From: Syntrophaceae bacterium UBA4810
GTDB lineage: Bacteria; Desulfobacterota; Syntrophia; Syntrophales; Smithellaceae
Assembly (NCBI GenBank): GCA_002402545.1
Contig: DHGA01000011.1
Location: forward strand, 1 to 55,785
Reading direction: 5' to 3'
Length of the DNA stretch: 55,785 bases
Shown one piece after another: positions 13,818 to 46,432 of the stretch. Each line of letters opens with the position of its first letter. Within the stretch, counting starts at the first letter, position 1. Under the pieces are notes generated by a model. That model did not search any database. It saw nothing but the letters and a program-made list of their open reading frames with translations, and was not told the origin of the DNA. Both the position numbers and the translations under genes were made by a program.

Positions 13818-14107
13818 TAATAATGCCTTTTATTAAAAATACAGCGTTATTATAGGAAAATATGCTCTTGTGTCAAATAGTAATAGACACAAACTCAAAA
13901 TAATTAAAAATGTTTATACGCTGGTTTTTTGTTGCAATATCACAAAGCATTGATTAAAAAAAGTGTTGTCTTCAATAAACTAAATAACGTACAATAATAT
14001 AAACAGTTACAGGCATGTTAAAAAGATCATGCTTGACCAGCTTTGAGCGAGATTATATCCTGTATTTTAAAAAAGAAAGAGGATTTAAGCTGTAGGCTTA
14101 TATTTTT

Positions 14108-26851: not shown

Positions 26852-27042
26852 TCGGGGCTCCTTTTAAAAAACATTTTTATTAAAAAATAAAATCATTCCC
26901 GCTGTACAAAAAATATCAACCGGGCGAATAAAAGAAAAAATGACAACAAAATATACTGGAATGAATTATATACAAGCATCGGCATATGTCAACATTTTCA
27001 GCTTAATGTCTAAAAAGACATTTGATTACTTTTTAATAATTA

Positions 27043-31234: not shown

Positions 31235-31573
31235 ATGAATAGCTTTATGAACGTCGTGAAGGCTATTTCGCAGACGGCGAAAGATGCGGGTGTAGAGATA
31301 TGTTTTGCCAATGCGGGAACAACGGAGCTGCCGCTGGTGGCGACCTTCGATAAGGTACTTGGTATCCGTCCCGTACTGGGACTTTTTGAAGGAGTATGCA
31401 CCGGCACAGACGACGGCAGTGCCATGTATACCGTTCAATCTTTGCGGTCGCCGGCGCAGGAGAAAGTCAATGTGCTCAAGATTATTTGCTGCGACCGCAA
31501 ATATTTTACGATTGAATTCGAATGCCGCCGCGCCGGAATGAATTCGCTAGGTGAAGCGGTGCTTGGCAGATAA
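31235..31573 (+). pseudogene. Internally deleted ThDP-dependent (acetolactate synthase large subunit-like) gene
   Basis: N-terminal AGVEICFANAGTTE...VLGLFEGVCTG is joined in frame to C-terminal DGSAMYTVQSL. Only 112 aa remain. TTGACG-N17-TATACT promoter at 31145-31173. Confidence 0.78.
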
Positions 31574-33436: not shown

Positions 33437-36400
33437 GTGGTTACAATGGTCAAAGTCACCCGCCCCGTCAAACAGGATAGTTATTTACGCCAGCGTCTTT
33501 TTGATCAACTTGATAAAATGCGCAAAAATCCGGCCATCTGGATTTCCGCCCCAGCGGGCGCGGGAAAAACCACGCTGGTCAGCAGTTATATCGGCAGCCG
33601 TAAGCTGCCCTGTCTATGGTATCAGTGCGACAAAGATGACAGCGATCCGGCCACATTCTTCTATTATATGGGGCGCGTCGCGCAAAAAGCCTCCCCGGGC
33701 AAACGAAAGCCCATGGCTCTTTTCACCCCGGAATATCAGCACGGATTAGAAGCATTCACCCGCAACTACTTTCAGCAGCTTTATTTAAGGCTAAAAAAAC
33801 CTTCCTTGCTGATATTGGATAATTATCAGGATGTTGCCGATGCCCCGGAATTTCTGAAGATCATAAAAACTGCTTTTGCCCACGTTCCTGATGGTGTGAA
33901 TATTATCGTCATCAGCCGCCACGATCCGCCCGATGCTTTAATTCGCCTGCAGGCCAATGACATTATGGATATCCTGCGCTGGCCGGATATCCGTTTAACC
34001 GAAGAAGAAGCGCGCGGCGTTATCCACGCGCGGGAAAAAACTCTGGCTTCCGAAGAAATCTTTGAGGACATCTACAAAATTTCCGAAGGCTGGGCGGCAG
34101 GTCTTGTGCTGATCGCCGCCTCACTGAAAAATCAAAAAAGCAGCAGCGCTTTTACCGGCAAGCAAAGCCACGATGAAATCATCTCTTATTTCGGGCAGGA
34201 AATATTTAACCATCTCGATACAAAAATGCAAAATTTCTTTCTGCGCACGGCTTTTCTGCCGTAGATGACGAAGCACATGGCAGAAGAAATAACCGGCGAT
34301 TCATCAGCGAGTGATATTCTCAATGAGGTGAACAGAAAAAATTATTTCATTTCACGCCATGGCCAGGCGGATCCTGTTTATGAATATCATCCGCTATATC
34401 AGGATTTTCTGCAGGCGCAGGCCAAAAAACTGCTGCTGCCTGCTGACTTAAGGGAACTCCGCGGAAAATCGGCTACGCTACTGGAACTAAATGGCCAGAC
34501 AGAAGCCGCTGTTTTCCAATTAAAAGAAATCGGCGAATGGAAAGCCATGGCGGACATTGTGCTGACTCACGCCCCGGGCATGCTCAATGAAGGGCGCCAT
34601 CGCCTGCTTCAGGAATGGCTGGAATTCATGCATCCGGATGCGGCACAGGCCATACCCTGGCTTATCTATTTCAGGGCGATGAGTATTATGCCTTTTAATC
34701 CGGCTACGGCTCAGGAGCTTTTCGAAGAGGCCTTTGATAAATTTCAGAAGCAGCAAGATCAATTCGGTGCAATGCTTTCCGCCTCCGGCGCAATTAATGC
34801 CATCTTTTGGGGATACGAAAATTTCGCGCCACTTGATCATTGGCGCGCGGGGCTCAATGAACTCGCGCAGGATATGGATTCATTCCCAGATCAACAAATA
34901 GAGGCATGGGTCACGGGCTGTCTGGTCATTGCTTCATCCTTAAGAGAAGTATATTCTCCAGAAACCGAAGTCTGGGAAAAGCGGGTGTTCACTATTGTGG
35001 AAACATCTGCTACCGCTAGCATCAAGGCCCAGGCCTTGTATTTAGTCTATTGGCATCAATTATTCTACAAGGGCATTCCCGATGCCTTGCCCGTGTTAAA
35101 TGAGTTACAACGCATGGCCAGTGCTTATGAAACCCAACCATTGGTATCCGCCTGCGCCCTGTTAGCAGAAGCCCAATATCATCTGTGCACCGGCCTGCAT
35201 GATAAAGTAATGGCCGCGGCCATAAAAGGCCTGGATATAGCTGAAAAAACCGGCGTTCACTCTGCGGACGTTTGGTATTATTTTTTTCTCATCATGAGTT
35301 ACAACAATCGCATGGATTACGCGGGAACCGATCCCTGGATCGACAAGATACAAAAAGACGTCAATACCTGGCCTAAATGGTCGAAATCTAGTTATCACTG
35401 GATAATGACGCAGAGAGAAATATTCAGAAAAGATTACACACGGGCTCTGTATGAAGGAGAACTGGGGCTCGATCTTGCGATTAAATCGGGGAATCCGTTC
35501 AGTATTGCCTCAAACCATTTGTCATTGGCGAATTTGTTCCATATCATTGGTAAGCGTCATGAAGCGCTGGAGCATCTTGAACAGGGACGCTCTTACGCTT
35601 TGCAAAGAAACTCTAAAGTCACCATGATTATTGTCCTGCTTCATGATGCCAAATTTGCATTCGATGACGGAGACGAGGCCAAGGGACTTTCCCTGCTTGG
35701 TCAATCACTTGCCCTGGCACGAGAAAGCGAGGTTGCCATACACTTGTCTTATAATCCGATGCTGGCGCTGAGCATGTGTGAAAAAGCGCTGGACGAAGGC
35801 ATCGAGGTCGACTTTGTTCAGCATATCATACGCCGGCGTCAGCTCATTCCGCAAAAATCACCTGTTCACATAGAACACTGGCCCTGGCCGGTGAAGATTT
35901 ACACCATGGGACGTTTCACCATTTTGATTGATGATGAACACTCGCCACCGCAGAGAAAAACAAAACAGACGCCGATCAAACTGCTTCAGGCGCTTATTGC
36001 TCTGGGCGGCCGTGATGTTTCCTGCGAAAAACTGTCTGATCTTCTTTGGCCGGATGCCGAAGGCGATACAGCCCATCATGCGTTGGAAACAACTTTGCAC
36101 CGCCTGCGCGGACTGCTTGGATATCCCGATGCCATTCGCCTGGCTAACGGCAAACTCACTTTGGATAACCGTTACTGCTGGGTGGACACCTGGGCTTTTG
36201 AGCGCTTGCTGGGACAGGCCGATAATTGCATTGCAGGGGCAAATGAAGAATCACGTAAAAAAGACCTGATAGAAAAAGCTACTTCTTTATAAAAGGGTGG
36301 ATTTTTCGCTGGGCAGCCGGAGGAATCATGGATGATTTCCCCTGCCGAACACTTGAAATCAAAATATTTCAAAAGTACTTGGTGGATGGTCAACTATTGG

Positions 36401-36637
36401 GAAAAAAGAAACCGGTGGGATGAGGCTGCGCAATATTGTGAAAACCTTCTGGCCGTTGATGAATGCCGCGAGGACATTTACCGCAAGCTCATGTTCTTAC
36501 ACAAGAATATGGAAAACAAGAGCGAGGCCCTGCTTGTTTATAAGCGTTGCCGCAAAAGTCTTTCTTCCGTGCTGGGAATAGAGCCTTCACTCGAAACACA
36601 GGCGTTATATAAGGCGCTACAGTCGGATAAATCTTAA
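33437..36637 (+). pseudogene. MalT-like STAND ATPase + TPR + OmpR-type wHTH + BTAD regulator, broken by two in-frame stops
   Basis: One reading frame of 3201 nt containing APAGAGKTT, LILDNYQ, YEYHPL, LSDLLWPD...LETTLHRLR, WVDTWAF and EDIYRKLM...LGIEPS.ET. TAG at 34262-64 and TAA at 36290-92 (SL*KGGFF, where LYxG is expected). Confidence 0.82.
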
Positions 36638-37848: not shown

Positions 37849-37911
37849 AATAAACAAAGGGAACGGCTTTTTTAAACACAAAAACAAACAGAGCCGTCCC
37901 CTTTGTTTATT
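37849..37911. terminator. Long inverted repeat between convergent units
   Basis: ATAAACAAAGGGAACGGCT...AGCCGTCCCCTTTGTTTAT. Confidence 0.6.
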
Positions 37912-38400
37912 GTCTTTTCAGATACTGCATGGCGGCATCCTGAATGACGCCTACGATTGCCGCTGCAGGAAATTATTTTTTTGCAGAATCCGCAGAACTT
38001 CCGGCCAGGTTTTAACGACAGTTAGATCATCTTCATGCCCGATCCATTTGAGGCACGACGGCGTCGGCCGGGGGTTGAGCACGATTAATTTTTTCATCAT
38101 CCCCGGCATTCATTCTCCCTTTCGGCATAAACCTGTAGTGATGTCCTCCGTAATCCGTCCCCCAGGGACCGAACACATAATGCGGCACCTGGCCTTCCGG
38201 CGCGTCAGAAATAATTACGCCCACCCCTTTTTTATCGCCTCTTAATAGTTGCCGGATAAGGAGCAGGGCAATCCCCGCTTCGTTGGCCTTGACGATAACC
38301 GTTTTTTTGCGGCGTGGCACAGCATGGCGCTAGCTGTACAGATTCTCCGCCGGATCATTTACCGGCTTCATGCCGATAGATTACCGCCGTCGCGAAGAAT
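37907..38400 (-). pseudogene. Frameshifted C-terminal remnant, lactate-racemase (LarA)-domain-like
   Basis: Successive frames give KANEAGIAL, GVGVIISDAPEGQVPHYVFGPWGTDYGG, KKLIVLNP..WIGHEDDLTVVKTWPEVLRIL and AIVGVIQDAAMQYLKRQ*. The family call is from memory of the motif pattern. Confidence 0.5.
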
Positions 38401-38466: not shown

Positions 38467-38958
38467 TTACACGCCCAGTTTGGAGCGGAAATCTTTCATG
38501 TGCGCTCGGTACTTTTCCACTTCATCGGCAGTCATATCATCGGGGAACCTCAGTTCCACCTGCGTCATGGCATCGACCAGCGTGTTGGAATGCGGAGCGA
38601 TATTCAGGATACCCACCTTGCTGCCGTGATCCAGCTTAATCTTCCCCAGCATAAAATCCGTGACAAACTTGGACTTTTTCGTGAGAATGTTTTTCCATTC
38701 CATAGGTGTTGCCGAAAGAATAAAGTCGCCGACTTTTTTGGCGTTCTCAGCGCTGATAAATTCAACTCTGGCCATCTTGCCGGATTCGAGCGCTGCTCCG
38801 AACAAGATATCCTGATCGATTCCCCATTTAGGTTCAGCCAAAACTTTGAAATAAACCGTCGATGTAAGTTTTTTAAGCGCTTTTTCAAACTTCGGGTTAT
38901 CCCTGTATGCCTGTGCAAAAGCCTCCAGCCATTCCGGTGTGCAGTAAGGTACGGACAT
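38467..38958 (-). CDS. SCP2 (sterol carrier protein 2)-like lipid-binding protein
   Basis: TPEWLEAF...NP, DFILSAT..EWK.IL and M.GKIKL..G. GGAGG RBS. Confidence 0.7.
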   Translation of the reverse strand: MSVPYCTPEWLEAFAQAYRDNPKFEKALKKLTSTVYFKVLAEPKWGIDQDILFGAALESGKMARVEFISAENAKKVGDFILSATPMEWKNILTKKSKFVTDFMLGKIKLDHGSKVGILNIAPHSNTLVDAMTQVELRFPDDMTADEVEKYRAHMKDFRSKLGV

Positions 38959-39000
38959 CGATTAAACCTCCCTTTCTAATTTTTTGGCATCAGCCGAGTG

Positions 39001-40674
39001 TTACGCTTTTTTGCCAAGAATATCTTTAAATTCTTCACGGAGCTCCTTTTTCCAGAGCTTTCCCGTTACCGTCATGGGCAAATCGTCTTTAAATACAACA
39101 ACTTTCGGGACTTCGTAATGAGCGAGTTTTTCCTTGCAGAGGTTGATGATTTCCTCCGCGGTAATTTTTCCGGTAAATTCCTCTTTCGCTCTGACAATCG
39201 CGACAACGCGCTCGCTTCCCTCCTTCTCCGGATCGGGAACACCGATTGTAACCACCATCTGGACACCGGGGTGGCGGAAAATCACCTCATCCACTTTGGT
39301 TGAATAAACTTTCAGCCCGGAAACATTAATCATATCTTTGATGCGGTCTGTTACATAGAAAAACCCCTCGCTGTCCATGTAGCCCAGGTCTCCGGTATGA
39401 AACCAACCTTCTTGAGTGAGACCCGAAGCATCGGGCCAGTACCCTTTCATTACCTGCGGACCACGAATCATGATTTCGCCGGTATCCCCGAAAGGAACAT
39501 CCTCGCCCGTGGCCGTATCCACAACACGGAAATCTGTATCGGGAACGGGAACACCGAGCCCGCGTTTTTCCTTGGACATAAAACCGGTAATTTTAGAAAA
39601 AGCGGAAGGATTAAGGGTCGCAATGGGTGCCGTTTCCGTCAAACCGTAACCCTCGGCGATGGGATTTCCCATATCTTTCATGACCGCTTCACGGACCGAT
39701 TCCGGAAGAGGCGCCGAGCCGGAAAAAAATAGACAGTTTACCCGGCCTATTTTGTAATTGCCGATCCGCATCAGCTGAGTGGGAATGGTGGGAATGAGAA
39801 ACGGGCGATGCTCTTTGATGGTATTCACAATGTTTTCTATATCGCGCGGGTCGGGAGCGATAATCACCCGCAGACTCCAGTGAGCAGCCTGGTGCACAAG
39901 CGCATGCCCGTAAGAATGAAAAAGGGGTATCGTGATGAAGACCGAGGACTTGCCGATGATCGCTCTGGACAATGGTTCCATCATCCAGGCCAGCCCTTGT
40001 ATAAGGTTCGCATACCTGTTGAAATGTGTAATCATGACGCCTTTGGGAAGCCCCGTAGCCCCGCCCGTGAAGGAAAGCTCACAGAGGTCATTGAGAGGAT
40101 CTATTTCCACCGCTACCGCCTTACCCATGTTTTCTTCAATCAGTTTTTTAAATTCCGCGACGCCTGCCGGAAGAGACGCATTTTTTATCTCCTCTGATCC
40201 AAAATCCGGAGCGATAATAATATTTTCCAGCGCCGTTTGTGGTTTCAGCGCCATTACCCGTTGTAAATCGGCTTCGCAACAAATGATAACACGGGCTCCG
40301 GACTGCGTCAGTTCATGTACGAGACCTTCGTCCGTCCTCGCCGTACTGGTGGGTACCGTGGCGGCGCCGGATTTAATGATCCCCCAATCACCGATGACAA
40401 ATTCAATACAATTAGGCAGAAAAAGGCAGACCCGGTCGCCACGTTTTATTCCCATGCCGGCCAGGGCAGAGGCAAAGGCATCCGCCTGTTGTTTCAGCTC
40501 TTTGTATGACATTGTCTTTTCATCGAGCTGCACGGCGGTTTTCCTGCCGTTTACTTCCGCGGCTTTGTCCAAGACTTTCCAGAGCGGCTCAACAGGATAA
40601 GGCGCACAACTTGCTTTCAGTTTGTAAGGCCCCAGTTTGTAGCTCTTCAGCCAAGGTTTGTCAGAATAGTTCAC
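39001..40674 (-). CDS. Long-chain fatty acid-CoA ligase
   Basis: FTGGATGLPKGV, EGYGLTETAP, GEIMIRGPQVMKGYW, TGDLG, DRIKDMI and TGKLWK. Confidence 0.93.
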   Translation of the reverse strand: MNYSDKPWLKSYKLGPYKLKASCAPYPVEPLWKVLDKAAEVNGRKTAVQLDEKTMSYKELKQQADAFASALAGMGIKRGDRVCLFLPNCIEFVIGDWGIIKSGAATVPTSTARTDEGLVHELTQSGARVIICCEADLQRVMALKPQTALENIIIAPDFGSEEIKNASLPAGVAEFKKLIEENMGKAVAVEIDPLNDLCELSFTGGATGLPKGVMITHFNRYANLIQGLAWMMEPLSRAIIGKSSVFITIPLFHSYGHALVHQAAHWSLRVIIAPDPRDIENIVNTIKEHRPFLIPTIPTQLMRIGNYKIGRVNCLFFSGSAPLPESVREAVMKDMGNPIAEGYGLTETAPIATLNPSAFSKITGFMSKEKRGLGVPVPDTDFRVVDTATGEDVPFGDTGEIMIRGPQVMKGYWPDASGLTQEGWFHTGDLGYMDSEGFFYVTDRIKDMINVSGLKVYSTKVDEVIFRHPGVQMVVTIGVPDPEKEGSERVVAIVRAKEEFTGKITAEEIINLCKEKLAHYEVPKVVVFKDDLPMTVTGKLWKKELREEFKDILGKKA

Positions 40675-40689
40675 AGCATTTCTCCTTTA

Positions 40690-42573
40690 TCATTGCATCT
40701 TTTTCACATCTTCTAGCAGCCCATCCAAACCGAGCTCTTTTAGTTTATCCGGCGATGGTATGCCGGTGGCTAAATCCCAGCCGCGGTAGTTATAGTAAGC
40801 ATCCTTGAGCATTTCCAGCGTTTCTGCATCTAACACCATTCCTTCGGCGGGACCTTCCGGCAGAGGTTCTTTCATGAGTCTGTCCGGAAGTATATCGTCT
40901 TTTCTTCTTATACCCTCCCGGTTGCAGTATACCCGGCCCAGGTTGTAAATCCTCTCGCCACATTTTCTGAAATCATCAACGCTGAAATCAGTCCATCCAG
41001 TAGCGTTTCTGATAAGATCAACAAGGTCCTCAGCTTTAAGGAGAGCGCCCATAAATTTGCATCCGCCCAGAGCATCCAAAGAGGTCAGGGCATCCTCCAT
41101 ATCCATAAGAATTTTAGCCTCCTCCGGCTTGGCGTTCAGCGGATCTTCTATGCTGCTTTCCTCGACAATCAGTATCGGTGCGTCGATAAAAGTGGGTGCT
41201 TCAATAAATGCTGTGATATGATCACCGCCTCTGTTCGCCGTTACGAATCCCAAACCGCATATTTTTGCGGCGCGCGGATCGTAAGCCGGCAATTCTAGTC
41301 CCTTCACGTTCATGGCAAAAACGGATGAGCCGCCACCGAGTTTTTCCGCCATAACTTTTGTTCCTTCTGCCAACAAGTCGCCAATTCCTTCCCGCTTCGC
41401 GATTTTTTCCACAAGTTCGACAATGAGATCAGCGTCGCCGAATTTAATGTCGATGCCCCCGGTCATCTCTTTGGTCAAAATGCCTTTCTCAAAGCATTCC
41501 ATGGCAAAGGCAATGGATGATCCTGCTGAGATTGTATCGAGACCGTATTCGTTACAAAGATAGTTGGCCATGGTGACCGCATTCATGTCCGCTATGCCGC
41601 AACAGGCCCCGAACATGTTGGTCGTCTCATATTCCGGTCCCTCGCCACTCCTTCCCGCCCACTTGCCTTGCTTAATCGCCGTGCCACGGCCGCAGGCGAT
41701 GGGACAACCGAAACACGCCAATTCTTTAACCAGTACTTTTTCGGTCATGGCCTGCCCGTTCATTTCCTCAATCTGATCGAAGACACCTTTTTGCCAGTTC
41801 AGAGTGGGATATCCGCCCCGCGCGTTAACCATATCAGCAACCAGATTGGTCCCGAAAGCCTCGAATCCAACCTTGAGCACAGACTCATTGAGATAGCCAA
41901 TCTGCTTTTTGGAAATTTTCTTGAACTCCTCCGAGTCATGGAGTTCAATCTTGGTTTTACCGGAACAAACAACAGCCTTGAGTTTTTTGGAGCCCATCAC
42001 CGCTCCCAAACCGCAACGCCCTACGGCGCGATGGCTGTTATTCATGATGGCCGAGTATCTTACAAGGTTTTCTCCTGCCTGGCCGATAGAGGCGGTAATG
42101 GGTTTTGGAACCGCGCCTTTCTGAATAATGTCCTCCGTTTCATTGACGCTTTTTCCCCACAGATGCCCCGCGTCTTTGAGCGTTGCTTTGCCGTCAGCGA
42201 TTTCCAGGTACACCGGTTTTGGCGAAACTCCTTCGATAATGATTCCGTCATAACCGCTTCTTTTGAGCATAGGACCGAAGTTTCCGCCGGAGTTTCCATG
42301 CCCCCATATCCCGGTCAGGGGCGACTTGGCGACAACGGAATAACGGGCGGCGCTGGCCGATGTTGTCCCCGTAAGCGGCCCGGTCATGAAAATAAGTTTA
42401 TTATCTGCCCCCAGGGGATCCACGCCGGCAGGGACTTCTTCATATAGGTAACTCGTGGCAATCCCCACGCCGCCGAGATATTTACGCATTTTGTCTTCCG
42501 AGATGCGCTCTTCGGATATTGATCCTTTGGTCAGGTTAACCCTCAATATCTTTCCCATAAAACCATTTCCCAT
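40690..42573 (-). CDS. aor: Aldehyde:ferredoxin oxidoreductase (W/Mo AOR family)
   Basis: GKILRVNLT, KSPLTG, GRCGLGAVMGSKKLKA, CFGCPIACGR, GPEYET, EYGLDTIS, VKGLELPAYDPR and YYNYRGWD. Confidence 0.94.
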   Translation of the reverse strand: MGNGFMGKILRVNLTKGSISEERISEDKMRKYLGGVGIATSYLYEEVPAGVDPLGADNKLIFMTGPLTGTTSASAARYSVVAKSPLTGIWGHGNSGGNFGPMLKRSGYDGIIIEGVSPKPVYLEIADGKATLKDAGHLWGKSVNETEDIIQKGAVPKPITASIGQAGENLVRYSAIMNNSHRAVGRCGLGAVMGSKKLKAVVCSGKTKIELHDSEEFKKISKKQIGYLNESVLKVGFEAFGTNLVADMVNARGGYPTLNWQKGVFDQIEEMNGQAMTEKVLVKELACFGCPIACGRGTAIKQGKWAGRSGEGPEYETTNMFGACCGIADMNAVTMANYLCNEYGLDTISAGSSIAFAMECFEKGILTKEMTGGIDIKFGDADLIVELVEKIAKREGIGDLLAEGTKVMAEKLGGGSSVFAMNVKGLELPAYDPRAAKICGLGFVTANRGGDHITAFIEAPTFIDAPILIVEESSIEDPLNAKPEEAKILMDMEDALTSLDALGGCKFMGALLKAEDLVDLIRNATGWTDFSVDDFRKCGERIYNLGRVYCNREGIRRKDDILPDRLMKEPLPEGPAEGMVLDAETLEMLKDAYYNYRGWDLATGIPSPDKLKELGLDGLLEDVKKMQ

Positions 42574-42645
42574 AATTCCTCCTGCAAATGACTGCTAAGT
42601 TCCTTTATAAAGGGGCTTGCCCCTCATGCAATTTATTATTAATTC

Positions 42646-44337
42646 TTAAGCTATTGGCTGATGCTTCGATTTCTTCAGCAAATAATCCTTCACGCCCCAT
42701 GCTTCTTCCGCTTTCAGGTGCCTGATCTTGCCGCTTTTTGGCTGGATATAAGACATCGCTCTTTCGGCAAACGCCAAAATAGACAATGCGGGATTTACGC
42801 CAAGATTTTCTGGCATTTGTGAGGCATCACAAACCAGCATATTATGATATCCTTTAATCCGGTTTTCTTCATCAATAACCCCGTTGTCAGGCGCCTGCCC
42901 GATCGTGCAGCCGCCCATGATGTGCGCGGTAATCGGCGCGTCCATCCAATTCTCTGTTGTGATATTAGCGGGGGTGCCGTCCATTCGCTTGGCCAAGCGC
43001 CTTGCAAAGTCGTAGCCGATGGGAATCCAGGTTGGATTTTTTTTCTCCGTTCCGTACGATGAAGTCAGCGTCCTGGAAAAAGGCCACAGGAACCTTCGTT
43101 TTCTCTGAATGATAATATAATTATCAAGGGTCTGCATGATGAGAAGAATAATGGAACGCTGGGCAAATCCTATGGGATTACATACCCGCAGAAAAGTGAT
43201 CGGATGAAAAAGGGCGTTAAAAAACGCTTTAATCTGCCGCGGTATCTTGCCGCCGCCTTCCGTCATGATTCCCGTGAGCAATCCCATAAAATCATGGCCT
43301 TTGCCGTAACGCACCGGTTCAATGTGAGTACTCTCATCGGGGTGAACGCTTGAGGTAATGGCAACCCCCTTGCTGAAATCCGCGTCTTTGGACTTCGCTT
43401 TCACGCCGATTATTGATTCACTGTTGGTACGGGAAAATTTTCCGATATGATCGGAAATCAGCGGGAGACGCCCGGTCTGTTTTAATTTCATCAAAAGAGA
43501 CAGCGTGCCGATGACGCCGGCGCCAAGAACAATCCCTTTAGTTTTGAACGTCTTCCCACCTAGTCGACCCAGCAATCCCGTTGTTTTTTTTGATTTGACG
43601 ATATATCCCTGGTCGCCATTGGGCGACAGCGGAATAATGTCATAGACCTTTTGCTCGGCAAAAATTTGAGCCCCGAATTTTTCGGCAAAATAGAGATAGT
43701 TTTTATCCAGAGAGTTCTTAGCGTTTTTTTTGCATCCCGTCATGCACTCGCCGCATAGTTCGCAGCCGACGCGGTCCGGCCCCTCGCCAAAGAAATACGG
43801 GTCCTCTTCAGGCATTTTTTCTTTGCCATAAAAGACAGCGACATCCGTTGTGGTGTAGGTGTGTTCTCGGCCGATCTCCGCGGCTGTTTCTTTTAAGAGC
43901 TGATCCTGGGGGGTGGCAACAGGATTAGGCACAACCCCGACCATTTTTTTCGCGATATCGTAAAAAGGCAACAATTCCTTTTTCCCACCAAGCCGTTTGA
44001 TGGTTTCACGTTCAAAAAATACCGGAGGAGGAGTATACATCGTGTTGGCATAGTTAAGACTTCCTCCACCCACCCCGGCGCCTGCCAATATAAACACATC
44101 CCTCAGAAGATGCATTCTTTGTATGCCATAGCAGCCAAAGGCGGGAAGCCACATAAACTTTTTAACGTTCCAGTTGCTTTTGGGAAATTCATCGGCATGC
44201 CACCTCTTTCCGGATTCGATAACGCCTACTTTGTATCCTTTCTGGGAAAGACGCATTGCGGCGACGCTGCCGCCAAAACCCGATCCGACAACAACATAAT
44301 CAAAATCAAATTTGTTTATGCCTGCATTTGTGCTCAT
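42646..44337 (-). CDS. GMC oxidoreductase, ChoD (cholesterol oxidase-like) subfamily
   Basis: VVGSGFGGSVAAMRL, GAGVGGGSLNYAN, CELCGECMTGC, TNSESI, TAHIMGG and LGVNPAL. Confidence 0.9.
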   Translation of the reverse strand: MSTNAGINKFDFDYVVVGSGFGGSVAAMRLSQKGYKVGVIESGKRWHADEFPKSNWNVKKFMWLPAFGCYGIQRMHLLRDVFILAGAGVGGGSLNYANTMYTPPPVFFERETIKRLGGKKELLPFYDIAKKMVGVVPNPVATPQDQLLKETAAEIGREHTYTTTDVAVFYGKEKMPEEDPYFFGEGPDRVGCELCGECMTGCKKNAKNSLDKNYLYFAEKFGAQIFAEQKVYDIIPLSPNGDQGYIVKSKKTTGLLGRLGGKTFKTKGIVLGAGVIGTLSLLMKLKQTGRLPLISDHIGKFSRTNSESIIGVKAKSKDADFSKGVAITSSVHPDESTHIEPVRYGKGHDFMGLLTGIMTEGGGKIPRQIKAFFNALFHPITFLRVCNPIGFAQRSIILLIMQTLDNYIIIQRKRRFLWPFSRTLTSSYGTEKKNPTWIPIGYDFARRLAKRMDGTPANITTENWMDAPITAHIMGGCTIGQAPDNGVIDEENRIKGYHNMLVCDASQMPENLGVNPALSILAFAERAMSYIQPKSGKIRHLKAEEAWGVKDYLLKKSKHQPIA

Positions 44338-44520
44338 GGGGGATCCTCCTGATACTTAAACGTATATTTTGCATTCTTTGTGGATGGATGATAATTATTC
44401 AAACGTGACAACTTCCAAAATAAGCGTTTAACCTAATGATAGCAATTTTCTGTTTACACTTCAATTTAGCTGGGTTCGGCACCAGGCAAATTCCTGCAAA
44501 AATACCCGCATTATTTTTTA

Positions 44521-44549
44521 ATTATATTCCCGCTTTAATTGACTGTCAA
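44521..44549 (-). promoter_or_regulatory. Consensus sigma70 promoter of the GMC-AOR operon, with a palindrome over the -35
   Basis: TTGACA-N17-TATAAT on the minus strand. TTGAC-T-GTCAA palindrome at 44539-44549. Confidence 0.75.
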
Positions 44550-44582
44550 CTGTTTAAAGTTTTTTATTAAAAAGACTTCCCC

Positions 44583-44640
44583 AAAAAACATAGCCGCGGG
44601 GCCATTTCTTTAATATATCAAGAAAATGACCCCGCGGTTT
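44583..44640 (-). terminator. Terminator after the membrane hydrolase
   Basis: CCGCGGGGTCATTTTCTT...AAGAAATGGCCCCGCGG followed by CTATGTTTTTT on the minus strand. Confidence 0.7.
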
Positions 44641-44659
44641 ATGTCACCTCAACAATCAG

Positions 44660-46432
44660 TTAAAACGCGAAATGTGTCGCCTGTCCGGCAACAATTATCC
44701 ACGTAATCAGCATGGCATTGAGAAACGCGCCGGTGTAAATATGCCCTGTTTTTCGGTAAAAGTAGGTCGAAATCAGCGCCACAATAGTGAATATCGGGAA
44801 GAACTGGAACATCACAATATACCACAGAGCGGCTTCCGGTATCGCCAGAGTACCGCCGGCGAAAAACGGCAGGTAGCCCAGGGTTTCAAAAATAATATAC
44901 GCGGTAATGAGCAGGAAAATATTGATGAGCATTTCCTGCCATGCCTTCAGCTCGCCTTTTTTACCGCAGCGCAGCTCGCCGTGCAAAATCATGCCGATAA
45001 TCAGGAAATAGAAAGCAAACGGAATCAGATAGCTCAGGAAGATGCGAAAATGCAGCAGCGTCATTGGCTTTATCGCGAACACCCAGAGACGGTAATCGGT
45101 GGTGAAAACTAAATGTGAAAAAAGCAGCGTCAAGTACGCCGCAACGCAGATAATCAGGGCAAGCAGAAAGGATTTCCCGATTTTTTTAAAATCTAGGCCC
45201 TTGTTCTTCCAGGTTACACCATAATTCACAAAACTTGCTTTTTTCTTTCGGTTAAAAAACACATGCCACAGGATAAACAAAATTAACGAAATAACCGCCA
45301 CAGTGCACGCCCACATCATGATTACCGTGGTATTTATCTGAGCGAAAAGCGCTGTTGGATTGAGCTTCTCCGGAGCAGAATAACCGATAGCCCACAAAAA
45401 TACCGGCAGGGGAATCAGCACCGTTAAAACGGCGCCCACCCACCAGCCGAAGCCGTTAGCTGATTTAATTTGCGCCGGTTTTTCGCTAATTTCTTTGAAA
45501 AATTTGGTCTGCAGCAAGAGCTGCCCTAGGGGGAAGATAAGCAGCAGCATGCCCAGCATGGCAATGAAAGTGCCTATTTCTTTCCAGTACCAGATCTGAC
45601 TGGAAACAGGAATATCTTTGCCGCCCTTAAGCGTCATCTGCATCCATTCAACCGCATTCCCGATTCCTTCTTGGGAAAAATGAACGCGCGGGTGAATAAT
45701 CGGCGGCTGATACAATTTTCTTGCCGTACCTTTTTCGATGGAACCGTAAAGCTTGCCCACTTCCACGTCTTCAGTCGTGCCGAACAATTTTTTCAGTTTA
45801 TCCGTTTTTACGATATCTGCCGGAATCGCCGCGCCCCACATTAACTGAGAAAATTCATCGTATTTGGAAAAAATAAGCGCCGTGTTGCGCGGGAAGGTTT
45901 CCGTCCCTTCGGGTATGCCGAAAGTTCCCGTCGAGGAACTTGCCAGAACAACCGCTTTATATCCTTTAGGATTGGTGGCGGCCGCCACCACCGATGCCCA
46001 CCCACCCATGGAATGTCCTTCCAGACCGATATTGTCAAGATCAACAATATCCAGAGTGCGTAAATAGGCAAGCGAATCCATCCCTCCGAAACCTTGGGCG
46101 AACGCAGGCGGGTCGGAAAAACCATGTCCGGTTTGATCAACCGCCAGAACGACATACCCACGTCGGGCAAATTCGATGGCAAAACCATCCTGTGTTTCGC
46201 GGGAGTTAATATATCCGTGCGTGGCCACAATGCCGGGTGCTGGTTTTTCTTTGCTCACCCCGGCAGGAATATATAAAAGAGCGCTCACCATTTTGCCGTT
46301 GGATGCCTTGAAGCGTATATCCTTAATTTTGATGGTGCCCCCGGATGTCTGGATTAAATAAGCCAGTAAGCCCCCGCCAATGATTAAAATCAGGGCTATC
46401 ACAATCAACCATTTGCATTTTTTTGTGTCCAT
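44660..46432 (-). CDS. Alpha/beta hydrolase with a C-terminal multi-TM domain
   Basis: N-terminal anchor, HGY, GHG.S, GHSMGG nucleophile elbow and about eight C-terminal TM helices. Confidence 0.85.
   Translation of the reverse strand: MDTKKCKWLIVIALILIIGGGLLAYLIQTSGGTIKIKDIRFKASNGKMVSALLYIPAGVSKEKPAPGIVATHGYINSRETQDGFAIEFARRGYVVLAVDQTGHGFSDPPAFAQGFGGMDSLAYLRTLDIVDLDNIGLEGHSMGGWASVVAAATNPKGYKAVVLASSSTGTFGIPEGTETFPRNTALIFSKYDEFSQLMWGAAIPADIVKTDKLKKLFGTTEDVEVGKLYGSIEKGTARKLYQPPIIHPRVHFSQEGIGNAVEWMQMTLKGGKDIPVSSQIWYWKEIGTFIAMLGMLLLIFPLGQLLLQTKFFKEISEKPAQIKSANGFGWWVGAVLTVLIPLPVFLWAIGYSAPEKLNPTALFAQINTTVIMMWACTVAVISLILFILWHVFFNRKKKASFVNYGVTWKNKGLDFKKIGKSFLLALIICVAAYLTLLFSHLVFTTDYRLWVFAIKPMTLLHFRIFLSYLIPFAFYFLIIGMILHGELRCGKKGELKAWQEMLINIFLLITAYIIFETLGYLPFFAGGTLAIPEAALWYIVMFQFFPIFTIVALISTYFYRKTGHIYTGAFLNAMLITWIIVAGQATHFAF

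Follow-up and report, generated by a model that had tools for sequence, protein, structure and literature searches.

The enzymes with which strict anaerobes take up long-chain alcohols and aldehydes are thinly described; such compounds come from surfactants, waxes, ether lipids and alkenes. A 55,785-nt stretch of DNA from Syntrophaceae bacterium UBA4810 (GenBank assembly GCA_002402545.1, contig DHGA01000011.1), here called the window, raises the question whether four adjacent genes on its minus strand encode such a route. The products of these genes are a flavoprotein of the GMC family, an aldehyde:ferredoxin oxidoreductase (AOR), an acyl-CoA ligase and a small SCP2-fold protein. The window corresponds to contig C85 of the source genome (G000), which has a size of 2.31 Mb and is 87% complete. 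Our analyses indicate that the genes likely form an operon, which would convert a long-chain primary alcohol into acyl-CoA without using oxygen or NAD+.

Organization of the predicted operon

We confirmed five minus-strand open reading frames (ORFs), encoding a hydrolase, the GMC protein, the AOR, the ligase and a 163-aa protein (Table 1). The intergenic spacing is 72 nt between the GMC and AOR genes, 15 nt between the AOR and ligase genes and 42 nt between the ligase and SCP2 genes, and a gap of 322 nt separates the hydrolase gene from the GMC gene. An earlier, sequence-only reading of the window had described co-oriented GMC, AOR, ligase and SCP2-like genes behind one consensus promoter. The gene content is borne out by the ORFs, by the family assignments and by the SCP2-fold model of the fourth protein, and the promoter sequence by a perfect match to the sigma-70 consensus.

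Three perfect sigma-70 sites are present in the window, where 0.02 are expected; the other two are located at positions 13849-13876 and 26965-26992 (-). Screening by eye of the regions 5' of the GMC gene in nine related loci revealed a TTGACA box, a spacing of 17 or 18 nt and a TA-rich box in six of them, two of which are near-identical. In a metatranscriptome run that contained 0.07 of the words, 13 short contigs fell on the genes for the SCP2-fold protein, the ligase, the AOR, the GMC protein and phosphoenolpyruvate carboxykinase, and none of the contigs listed bridges genes. We consider it likely that the four co-oriented genes behind the single consensus promoter form an operon.

Table 1. 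Features in and around the predicted operon, with positions on the window.
Feature	Position	Strand	Remarks
GMC flavoprotein, ChoD/SlfH-type, 563 aa	42646..44337	-	His472/Asn515 pair; Cys192/195/198/202; predicted Fe-S long-chain alcohol dehydrogenase (activity and cluster both predicted)
AOR, single-subunit aldehyde:ferredoxin oxidoreductase (class I WOR), 627 aa	40690..42573	-	operon-linked clade; RGGDH motif; match to 1aor with E 1e-147
Acyl-CoA ligase, FadD-like, 557 aa	39001..40674	-	forms its own subfamily, sharing conserved insertions; intact catalytic motifs (Lys539); chain-length preference presumed
Stand-alone SCP2-fold protein, 163 aa	38467..38958	-	predicted carrier of hydrophobic substrate or product
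Sigma-70 consensus promoter, TTGACA-17-TATAAT, 5' of the GMC gene	44521..44549	-	predicted from sequence match
Intrinsic-terminator-like hairpin between hydrolase gene and operon	44583..44637	-	folding energy compared with shuffles
Membrane alpha/beta hydrolase, 590 aa	44660..46432	-	neighbour, likely outside the unit
MalT-like/BTAD regulator with two in-frame stops	33437..36637	+	outside the unit
Small outer-membrane beta-barrel, PF13505	37092..37796	+	outside the unit

The GMC flavoprotein

The GMC protein contains the domains GMC_oxred_N and GMC_oxred_C. Its best NCBIfam match is the ChoxAB model NF058674, labelled 'cholesterol oxidase', with 605 bits (cut-off 850). It scores 41.9 bits against PRK02106, which places it outside the AlkJ-type subfamily; AlkJ itself presumably belongs to the choline-dehydrogenase-like GMC subfamily.

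The residues Cys192, Cys195, Cys198, Cys202, His472 and Asn515 are the same in all 51 aligned sequences, and the motif formed by the cysteines, CxxCxxCxxxC, is present in all 120 GMC homologues as well as in SlfH, a plasmid-encoded protein discussed below. The sole member of the tree without the full motif, in locus L116, differs at the +3 cysteine only. The gene order in L116 (5912-9799, minus strand) is GMC - polyferredoxin - AOR, and the three cysteines retained by this GMC have the pattern of a 3Fe-4S site. In the flavin adenine dinucleotide (FAD)-dependent glucose dehydrogenase (FAD-GDH) of Burkholderia, Cys212, Cys218 and Cys222 bind a 3Fe-4S cluster that relays the electrons of the FAD, and His476 and Asn519 form the catalytic pair (PMC6719666, available part). 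The cysteines of the window GMC at 0, +6 and +10, and its His and Asn residues 43 positions apart, reproduce the spacings of FAD-GDH, a match that concerns spacing and position along the chain, not superposition at residue level. In true cholesterol oxidases the cysteines are absent at the aligned place. Because its cysteine motif is spaced like the 3Fe-4S ligands of FAD-GDH, the window GMC likely needs no oxygen; motif and structural model suggest that it is likely an Fe-S flavo-dehydrogenase. The earlier proposal that the protein oxidises an alcohol is strengthened by this motif and by the homology to SlfH.

The model of the GMC protein (pLDDT 87.6) has a cholesterol oxidase as its top Foldseek match. 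In the VIA fold match, the Fe-S fructose dehydrogenase (Z 33.3, root-mean-square deviation 3.6, 449 aligned residues) is tied for first place with cholesterol oxidase (Z 32.7). The 60-aa loop with the cysteines gave no significant match when compared with the PDB, ferredoxin-type matches having E values of 0.1 or worse. Genes for a small hitchhiker subunit or a multiheme cytochrome c subunit were found neither in the operon nor recurring beside it.

The fold matches bear on the possibility that the GMC acts as a genuine cholesterol oxidase or as a sterol 3-hydroxyl dehydrogenase and that the cluster handles steroids, which the sequence-only reading had listed among the substrates. The top PDB matches, the NCBIfam label and the SCP2 fold agree with a role in steroid metabolism, and so does a related GMC gene in a thiolase/SCP2/ChsH2 cluster (L118). 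His472 and Asn515 align with the His447/Asn485 pair of class I cholesterol oxidases; the region around Glu361, the isomerase base of cholesterol oxidase, did not align. The score, however, stays below the curated cut-off. Acinetobacter ChoxAB does have some cholesterol oxidase activity, but it amounts to just 0.054 U/mg (PMC8409315, available part), and the activity of ChoD is disputed (PMC11060060, available part). Furthermore, a 3-ketone is not an AOR substrate, and no 3-ketosteroid dehydrogenase (KstD) over cut-off was found in the 87% complete genome, on which ground steroid ring degradation was rejected. We regard a steroid function as highly improbable. Motif and model suggest instead that the label 'cholesterol oxidase' may be widely misapplied in this GMC family, and we propose a reassignment that can be tested.

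The AOR, the ligase and the SCP2-fold protein

The AOR carries both the AFOR_N and the AFOR_C domain. Alignment with 1aor showed that it retains the four Fe-S cysteines as well as T243, E313, Y427 and H448 of the Pyrococcus furiosus enzyme, residues that are named in the available part of PMC13328260. The AORs of the conserved core described below form a single clade with support 99 (24 rows) in a quick tree that has long branches outside this clade. All 25 core sequences contain the RGGDH motif, and in all 25 an Asp replaces the Cys preceding the catalytic His. No gene for WorS, a small Fe-S subunit, is present in the operon. Class I WORs, which consist of a single subunit, use ferredoxin (PMC13328260, available part), so that ferredoxin is the likely acceptor, in line with the earlier claim that the AOR yields reduced ferredoxin. 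With regard to the metal, tungsten or molybdenum, the genome encodes binding proteins of family PF12849, which includes phosphate binders too.

The ligase belongs to the AMP-binding family, and its adenylation motifs are intact. Models for long-chain-fatty-acid ligases rank at the top, all of them under cut-off (352 bits versus 1116; 350 versus 476). The core ligases share insertions that are absent from five other ligases compared. When 50% representatives were searched with the ligase, multi-domain synthetases dominated the matches, and none of the 150 rows listed was an AOR-ligase fusion. The 163-aa protein has no Pfam match, PF02036 included. Its model (pLDDT 94) matches the SCP2 structures 1wfr (Foldseek E 3e-9) and 2cx7 (TM 0.69/0.85), and Atlas agrees. 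A complex prediction for the ligase and the SCP2-fold protein gave a score of 0.01.

The AOR reaction is reversible, and the operon could also work in the opposite direction: ferredoxin of low potential, possibly with the help of ATP-dependent adenylation, would reduce fatty acids to the aldehydes and alcohols from which ether lipids or waxes are made. The Asp-for-Cys replacement and the unique ligase insertions leave room for special chemistry of this kind. However, because the AOR uses free acids, reduction would face competition from a CoA ligase, and GMC flavins favour oxidation of alcohols. In addition, the neighbouring genes are catabolic (sulfatase, thiolase, enoyl-CoA hydratase), and no lipid-synthesis gene recurs among the annotated neighbour families. 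We consider reductive use to be very unlikely.

Conservation of the gene cluster

We analyzed the synteny of 92 loci around relatives of this SCP2 clade, which fall into 51 groups at 90% SCP2 identity; two weak matches (L008, L009) and two duplicates (L034, L091) were dropped before counting. The ligase gene is located 5' of the SCP2 gene in all 65 loci with 700 nt of upstream sequence, and the AOR gene 5' of the ligase gene in all 37 loci with 3 kb upstream. Of 13 close loci, 10 have a GMC gene 5' of the AOR gene; one other locus has an iron alcohol dehydrogenase (Fe-ADH) module in the position of the GMC gene. A close GMC homologue and a close SCP2 homologue were found together in five of 201 genomes from the order, which represent three families, and neither was found alone. 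Near full-length SCP2 matches with more than 40% identity number five in 401 genomes of the phylum, the source genome included, which shows that the module is rare. It was found in uncultured Desulfobacterota and also in Anaerolineales. A ThiS-like gene (WorX) lies 3' of the SCP2 gene in 27 loci, and a patatin gene is often present 3' of the operon.

Synteny, co-occurrence, the AOR clade and the shared ligase insertions show that the conserved core is a co-evolving AOR-ligase-SCP2 trio, which is older and widespread, and that the GMC gene is a later, lineage-specific addition. A survey of the four genes had been suggested as a check of the sequence-only reading; the order of the last three genes is indeed conserved, but the four do not constitute a fixed unit.

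This raises the possibility that the trio alone is the pathway, salvaging or detoxifying hydrophobic aldehydes (from plasmalogen cleavage, or aromatic or terpenoid ones), and that the GMC acts on something else. The trio is found without an upstream GMC gene in 18 of 28 informative loci. The genome has three matches to YhhN, which we take to be a lysoplasmalogenase, and a YhhN gene lies near the trio in L097. Class I WORs, moreover, usually detoxify aldehydes (PMC13328260, available part). On the other hand, the GMC and the trio co-occur in five of five cases in the order sample, GMCs have met AORs more than once, and aerobic homologues of the GMC gene adjoin aldehyde dehydrogenase genes. Proximity of YhhN to the trio was seen in one locus only among those collected by then. 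An independent aldehyde pathway is therefore unlikely in our judgement, and we favour the reading in which the GMC feeds the trio.

Other genes recur around the core. A paralogous module with the order AOR - SCP2-like - Fe-ADH - SCP2-like is present in L024, L025, L027, L028, L030, L031 and L096, and in L096 it lies directly 5' of AOR-ligase-SCP2. Genes recurring 3' of the SCP2 gene in L004, L036 and L044 encode a flavin amine-oxidase-family protein, a 746-786-aa protein without Pfam match and an aldehyde/alcohol dehydrogenase fusion.

GMC genes in other neighbourhoods

A plasmid search resulted in 33 full-length homologues of the window GMC, including SlfH of the Psychrobacter plasmid pP62BP1 (36.5-37.5% identity over about 550 aa; E 3e-86 and 2e-123). 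The gene order on pP62BP1 is aldehyde dehydrogenase - GMC (SlfH) - alkyl sulfatase - CoA ligase. These genes, slfCHSL, have been shown to form an operon that lauryl aldehyde induces, and the Psychrobacter strain degrades C8-C16 alkyl sulfates (PMC10779009, available part). We inspected eight of the 33 plasmid contexts. An aldehyde dehydrogenase gene is adjacent in four of these, accompanied by an alkyl sulfatase gene in three of the four; one context contains a P450 system, another a ligase and hydrolases, and two are uninformative. On a Rhodococcus plasmid (L155:5983-10899, plus strand) a GMC of the same type heads genes for a ferredoxin, a cytochrome P450 and a reductase, a layout known from CYP153 alkane operons.

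Within the synteny set, the AOR-ligase-SCP2 trio of L048 has behind it the gene for a different GMC (45%) and one for an alkyl sulfatase that is 41% identical to SlfS. Three of nine distant GMCs of the order are adjacent to an AOR, in each case another AOR. A topology in which the AOR-co-oriented GMCs form a single clade was rejected (p-AU 0.0003; 6 rows versus 9), indicating that GMCs joined AOR genes more than once. Two GMC loci were present on viral contigs.

Further clusters contain related genes. L122 (13578-16373, minus strand) encodes a glycyl radical enzyme of 931 aa that carries an SCP2 domain at its N terminus and may be a radical dehydratase acting on a lipid diol; its gene precedes that of its activase and, after that, ligase - GMC - ligase - 2-hydroxyacyl-CoA-dehydratase-like genes. 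In L134 (5143-19999, plus strand), L117, L118 and L120, an AOR gene and two short-chain dehydrogenase/reductase genes belong to a cluster that continues with a thiolase-like pair, an SCP2/ChsH2 fusion, an OB-fold/beta-keto acid cleavage fusion, a ligase and a CoA transferase among further genes. A ChoD-type GMC gene lies inside this cluster in relatives and is absent from it in the source genome.

A broader proposal, which we put forward tentatively and with somewhat more doubt than confidence, is that the 'cholesterol oxidase' family of ChoD/ChoxAB/SlfH type consists of Fe-S long-chain alcohol dehydrogenases. Anaerobes would have repeatedly plugged one of these into a tungsten AOR-ligase-SCP2 module, giving an NAD-free and oxygen-free route from fatty alcohol to acyl-CoA that reduces ferredoxin in its second step.

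Metabolic context and proposed mechanism

The genome encodes 13 acyl-CoA dehydrogenases scoring over cut-off as well as electron-transfer flavoprotein (ETF) and 3-hydroxyacyl-CoA dehydrogenases, and can therefore use the acyl-CoA product. A second alcohol-to-acid cluster is located on contig C36 (L133:3172-8917, minus strand) and encodes an alkyl sulfatase (48% to SlfS), a 117-aa protein, an Fe-ADH and an AOR. On contig C61 (L135:3994-6843, plus strand), a gene for a 949-aa AOR-Fe-ADH fusion is followed by acyl-CoA-dehydrogenase-like and enoyl-CoA hydratase genes. These two loci in the same genome show that the alcohol-oxidising partners of the AORs vary. On contig C107 (L132:3682-6234, minus strand) we found an 850-aa glycyl radical enzyme with its activase; the enzyme contains a GCLE loop and scores under every NCBIfam cut-off. 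As it is unclassified by NCBIfam, it was rejected as a known alkane-activating source.

From the gene order, folds, motifs and co-occurrence described above we infer the substrates, the Fe-S cluster, the direction of the pathway and the co-transcription of its genes. In the first step the GMC would oxidise the alcohol to the aldehyde, and the electrons would pass from FAD to the predicted Fe-S cluster at Cys192/(195)/198/202 and then to a carrier, which may be a quinone, ETF or a ferredoxin-like protein. The AOR, whose enzyme class is given by its sequence, would then oxidise this aldehyde to the acid and reduce ferredoxin; by keeping the aldehyde low it would pull the first step forward. The ligase, of known class, would convert the presumed acid into acyl-CoA for beta-oxidation, and the SCP2-fold protein, so named from its model, would hold or pass on insoluble intermediates. 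AOR, ligase and SCP2-fold protein would thus be an aldehyde-to-acyl-CoA module to which the GMC adds alcohol entry. Candidate sources of the alcohol are alkyl sulfate, wax ester, ether lipid and phytol.

Several observations weigh against this mechanism. Cholesterol oxidases are the best matches of the GMC both by sequence and in Foldseek, and no gene for a partner subunit or an electron acceptor of the GMC is present in the operon. SlfH is itself predicted to be an alcohol dehydrogenase in the available part of PMC10779009, and the eight plasmid contexts, a quarter of them uninformative, were picked by hand and not at random. The upstream GMC gene is missing in all 15 distant loci and in three of the 13 close ones, and as the close loci are mutually related, the counts overstate independence. 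In the order, the sequence read around six of the nine distant GMCs, three of them on short contigs, contains no AOR gene, and the 12-19 kb read around each of seven distant GMCs from elsewhere in the phylum contains none either. Finally, the ligase scores under every NCBIfam cut-off and is 24% identical to SlfL, and its substrate may be aromatic, since feruloyl- and coumarate-CoA ligases are among its closest relatives with solved structures.

If the mechanism is correct, a WOR clade would acquire a role linked to growth, and a defined role is known for only 5 of 92 such clades (PMC13328260, available part). A wrong substrate and an overlooked Fe-S cluster would then explain the weak activity of ChoD-type 'cholesterol oxidases'. 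For a syntroph that oxidises fatty acids, the reduced ferredoxin that the AOR yields could compensate for what the alcohol step costs. The operon also provides four soluble candidate proteins and a marker module in uncultured Desulfobacterota and Anaerolineales.

The hydrolase and other flanking genes

The hydrolase is an alpha/beta hydrolase with eight hydrophobic segments and a GHSMG motif containing Ser141. The predicted hairpin downstream of its gene is followed by a U run and has a folding energy of -35.1 kcal/mol (z -5.75), equalled by none of 200 shuffles, in agreement with the earlier claim that the hydrolase gene is separately terminated. The terminator-like stem is retained in L003. 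Of 201 genomes from the order, 10 contain close homologues of the hydrolase, with varied neighbours; six of these genomes have no cluster, and in two more the hydrolase and the cluster are on different contigs. These results indicate that the hydrolase likely travels independently of the operon and is not a fixed member of it.

The sequence-only reading had proposed a complete chain from ester to alcohol, aldehyde, acid and acyl-CoA, in which the membrane hydrolase would cleave wax or other esters and supply the operon with alcohol. The gene adjoins the operon in the window, L003 and L047 and lies two genes off in L005; in L004 and L037 a different hydrolase gene is divergent to the GMC gene, and the patatin genes 3' of the operon could likewise fit such a chain. 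Nevertheless, a strong terminator and a separate promoter set the hydrolase gene apart, and it is missing in three of the six GMC loci long enough to tell. Whereas the chain from the alcohol onward is probable, a first step by the hydrolase is rather improbable given its own terminator and its independent distribution.

The sequence-only reading had also drawn an analogy to AlkS and AlkL from a MalT-like regulator and a barrel encoded next door. The former gene is a single frame with stops at 34262-64 and 36290-92 and a BTAD domain at its end, and it was matched in one of 41 genomes, the source genome only; the analogy to AlkS and AlkL therefore fails. The barrel matches PF13505, not OmpW. Neither gene was seen next to the cluster in any of the related loci; there, the same patatin gene of the flank directly abuts the operon. 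The window also contains a truncated remnant of a thiamine pyrophosphate (TPP)-enzyme gene at 31235-31573, the protein being 517 aa long in L003 and L005, and a remnant at 37909-38294 that is the end of a LarA-like gene. These remnants and the broken regulator gene point to local decay and likely to a recent insertion.

Comparison with known systems

Like the window operon, the Slf operon combines an aldehyde-oxidising enzyme and a CoA ligase with a GMC, and SlfH is homologous to the window GMC (37%, same cysteine motif). In contrast, its host is aerobic, an NAD(P) aldehyde dehydrogenase takes the place of the AOR, an SCP2 gene is lacking, and SlfL is not orthologous to the window ligase. The alkyl sulfatase of the Slf operon has no counterpart in the window operon, its SlfS homologue being encoded elsewhere in the genome.

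The alk system of Pseudomonas putida comprises AlkJ, AlkH, AlkK, AlkL and AlkS. In the available accounts, alk and LaoABC of P. aeruginosa also lead from alcohol through aldehyde and acid to acyl-CoA with a flavoprotein acting first; the window operon differs by another GMC subfamily, an AOR instead of an aldehyde dehydrogenase and the lack of a LaoB-type partner. Moreover, no intact MalT-type regulator and no OmpW barrel are linked to the window operon. The 46 window ORFs scanned, to which the AlkB search was confined, include no AlkB alkane monooxygenase with rubredoxin.

The window AOR shares both domains, the catalytic residues, the Fe-S cysteines and the single-subunit state with the class I WOR of Pyrococcus furiosus (1aor), but belongs to a separate clade with RGGDH and a fixed link to a ligase and SCP2. 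In the 2026 WOR classification (PMC13328260), the terms ligase, sterol, SCP2 and fatty give no matches in the main text, and three supplements give none either. The window GMC resembles Burkholderia FAD-GDH (6a2u) and Gluconobacter fructose dehydrogenase (8k6k) in its fold (Z 33) and in the spacing of its His/Asn pair and cysteines. It differs in that the identity is about 19%, that a further, fourth cysteine lies at +3 and that a small or cytochrome c subunit gene and an export signal are absent. With ChoD/ChoxAB and class I cholesterol oxidases (1coy, 1b4v) it has the fold, the His/Asn pair and the family label in common, whereas true cholesterol oxidases lack the cysteine motif, their substrate domain did not align, and the host of the window GMC is anaerobic.

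A preprint on anaerobic hexadecane use (10.64898/2026.01.09.698600) proposes the same intermediates, formed by ordinary dehydrogenases, and its available text does not mention a GMC. Our literature search, some queries of which may have missed papers and in which subscription coverage was thin, found no paper on an AOR with a CoA ligase and SCP2. On balance, the operon is probably an anaerobic variant, of which we found no example in print, of a known type of alcohol-to-acyl-CoA pathway. In the way it works it resembles the aerobic Slf, Alk and Lao routes, yet it belongs to none of them.

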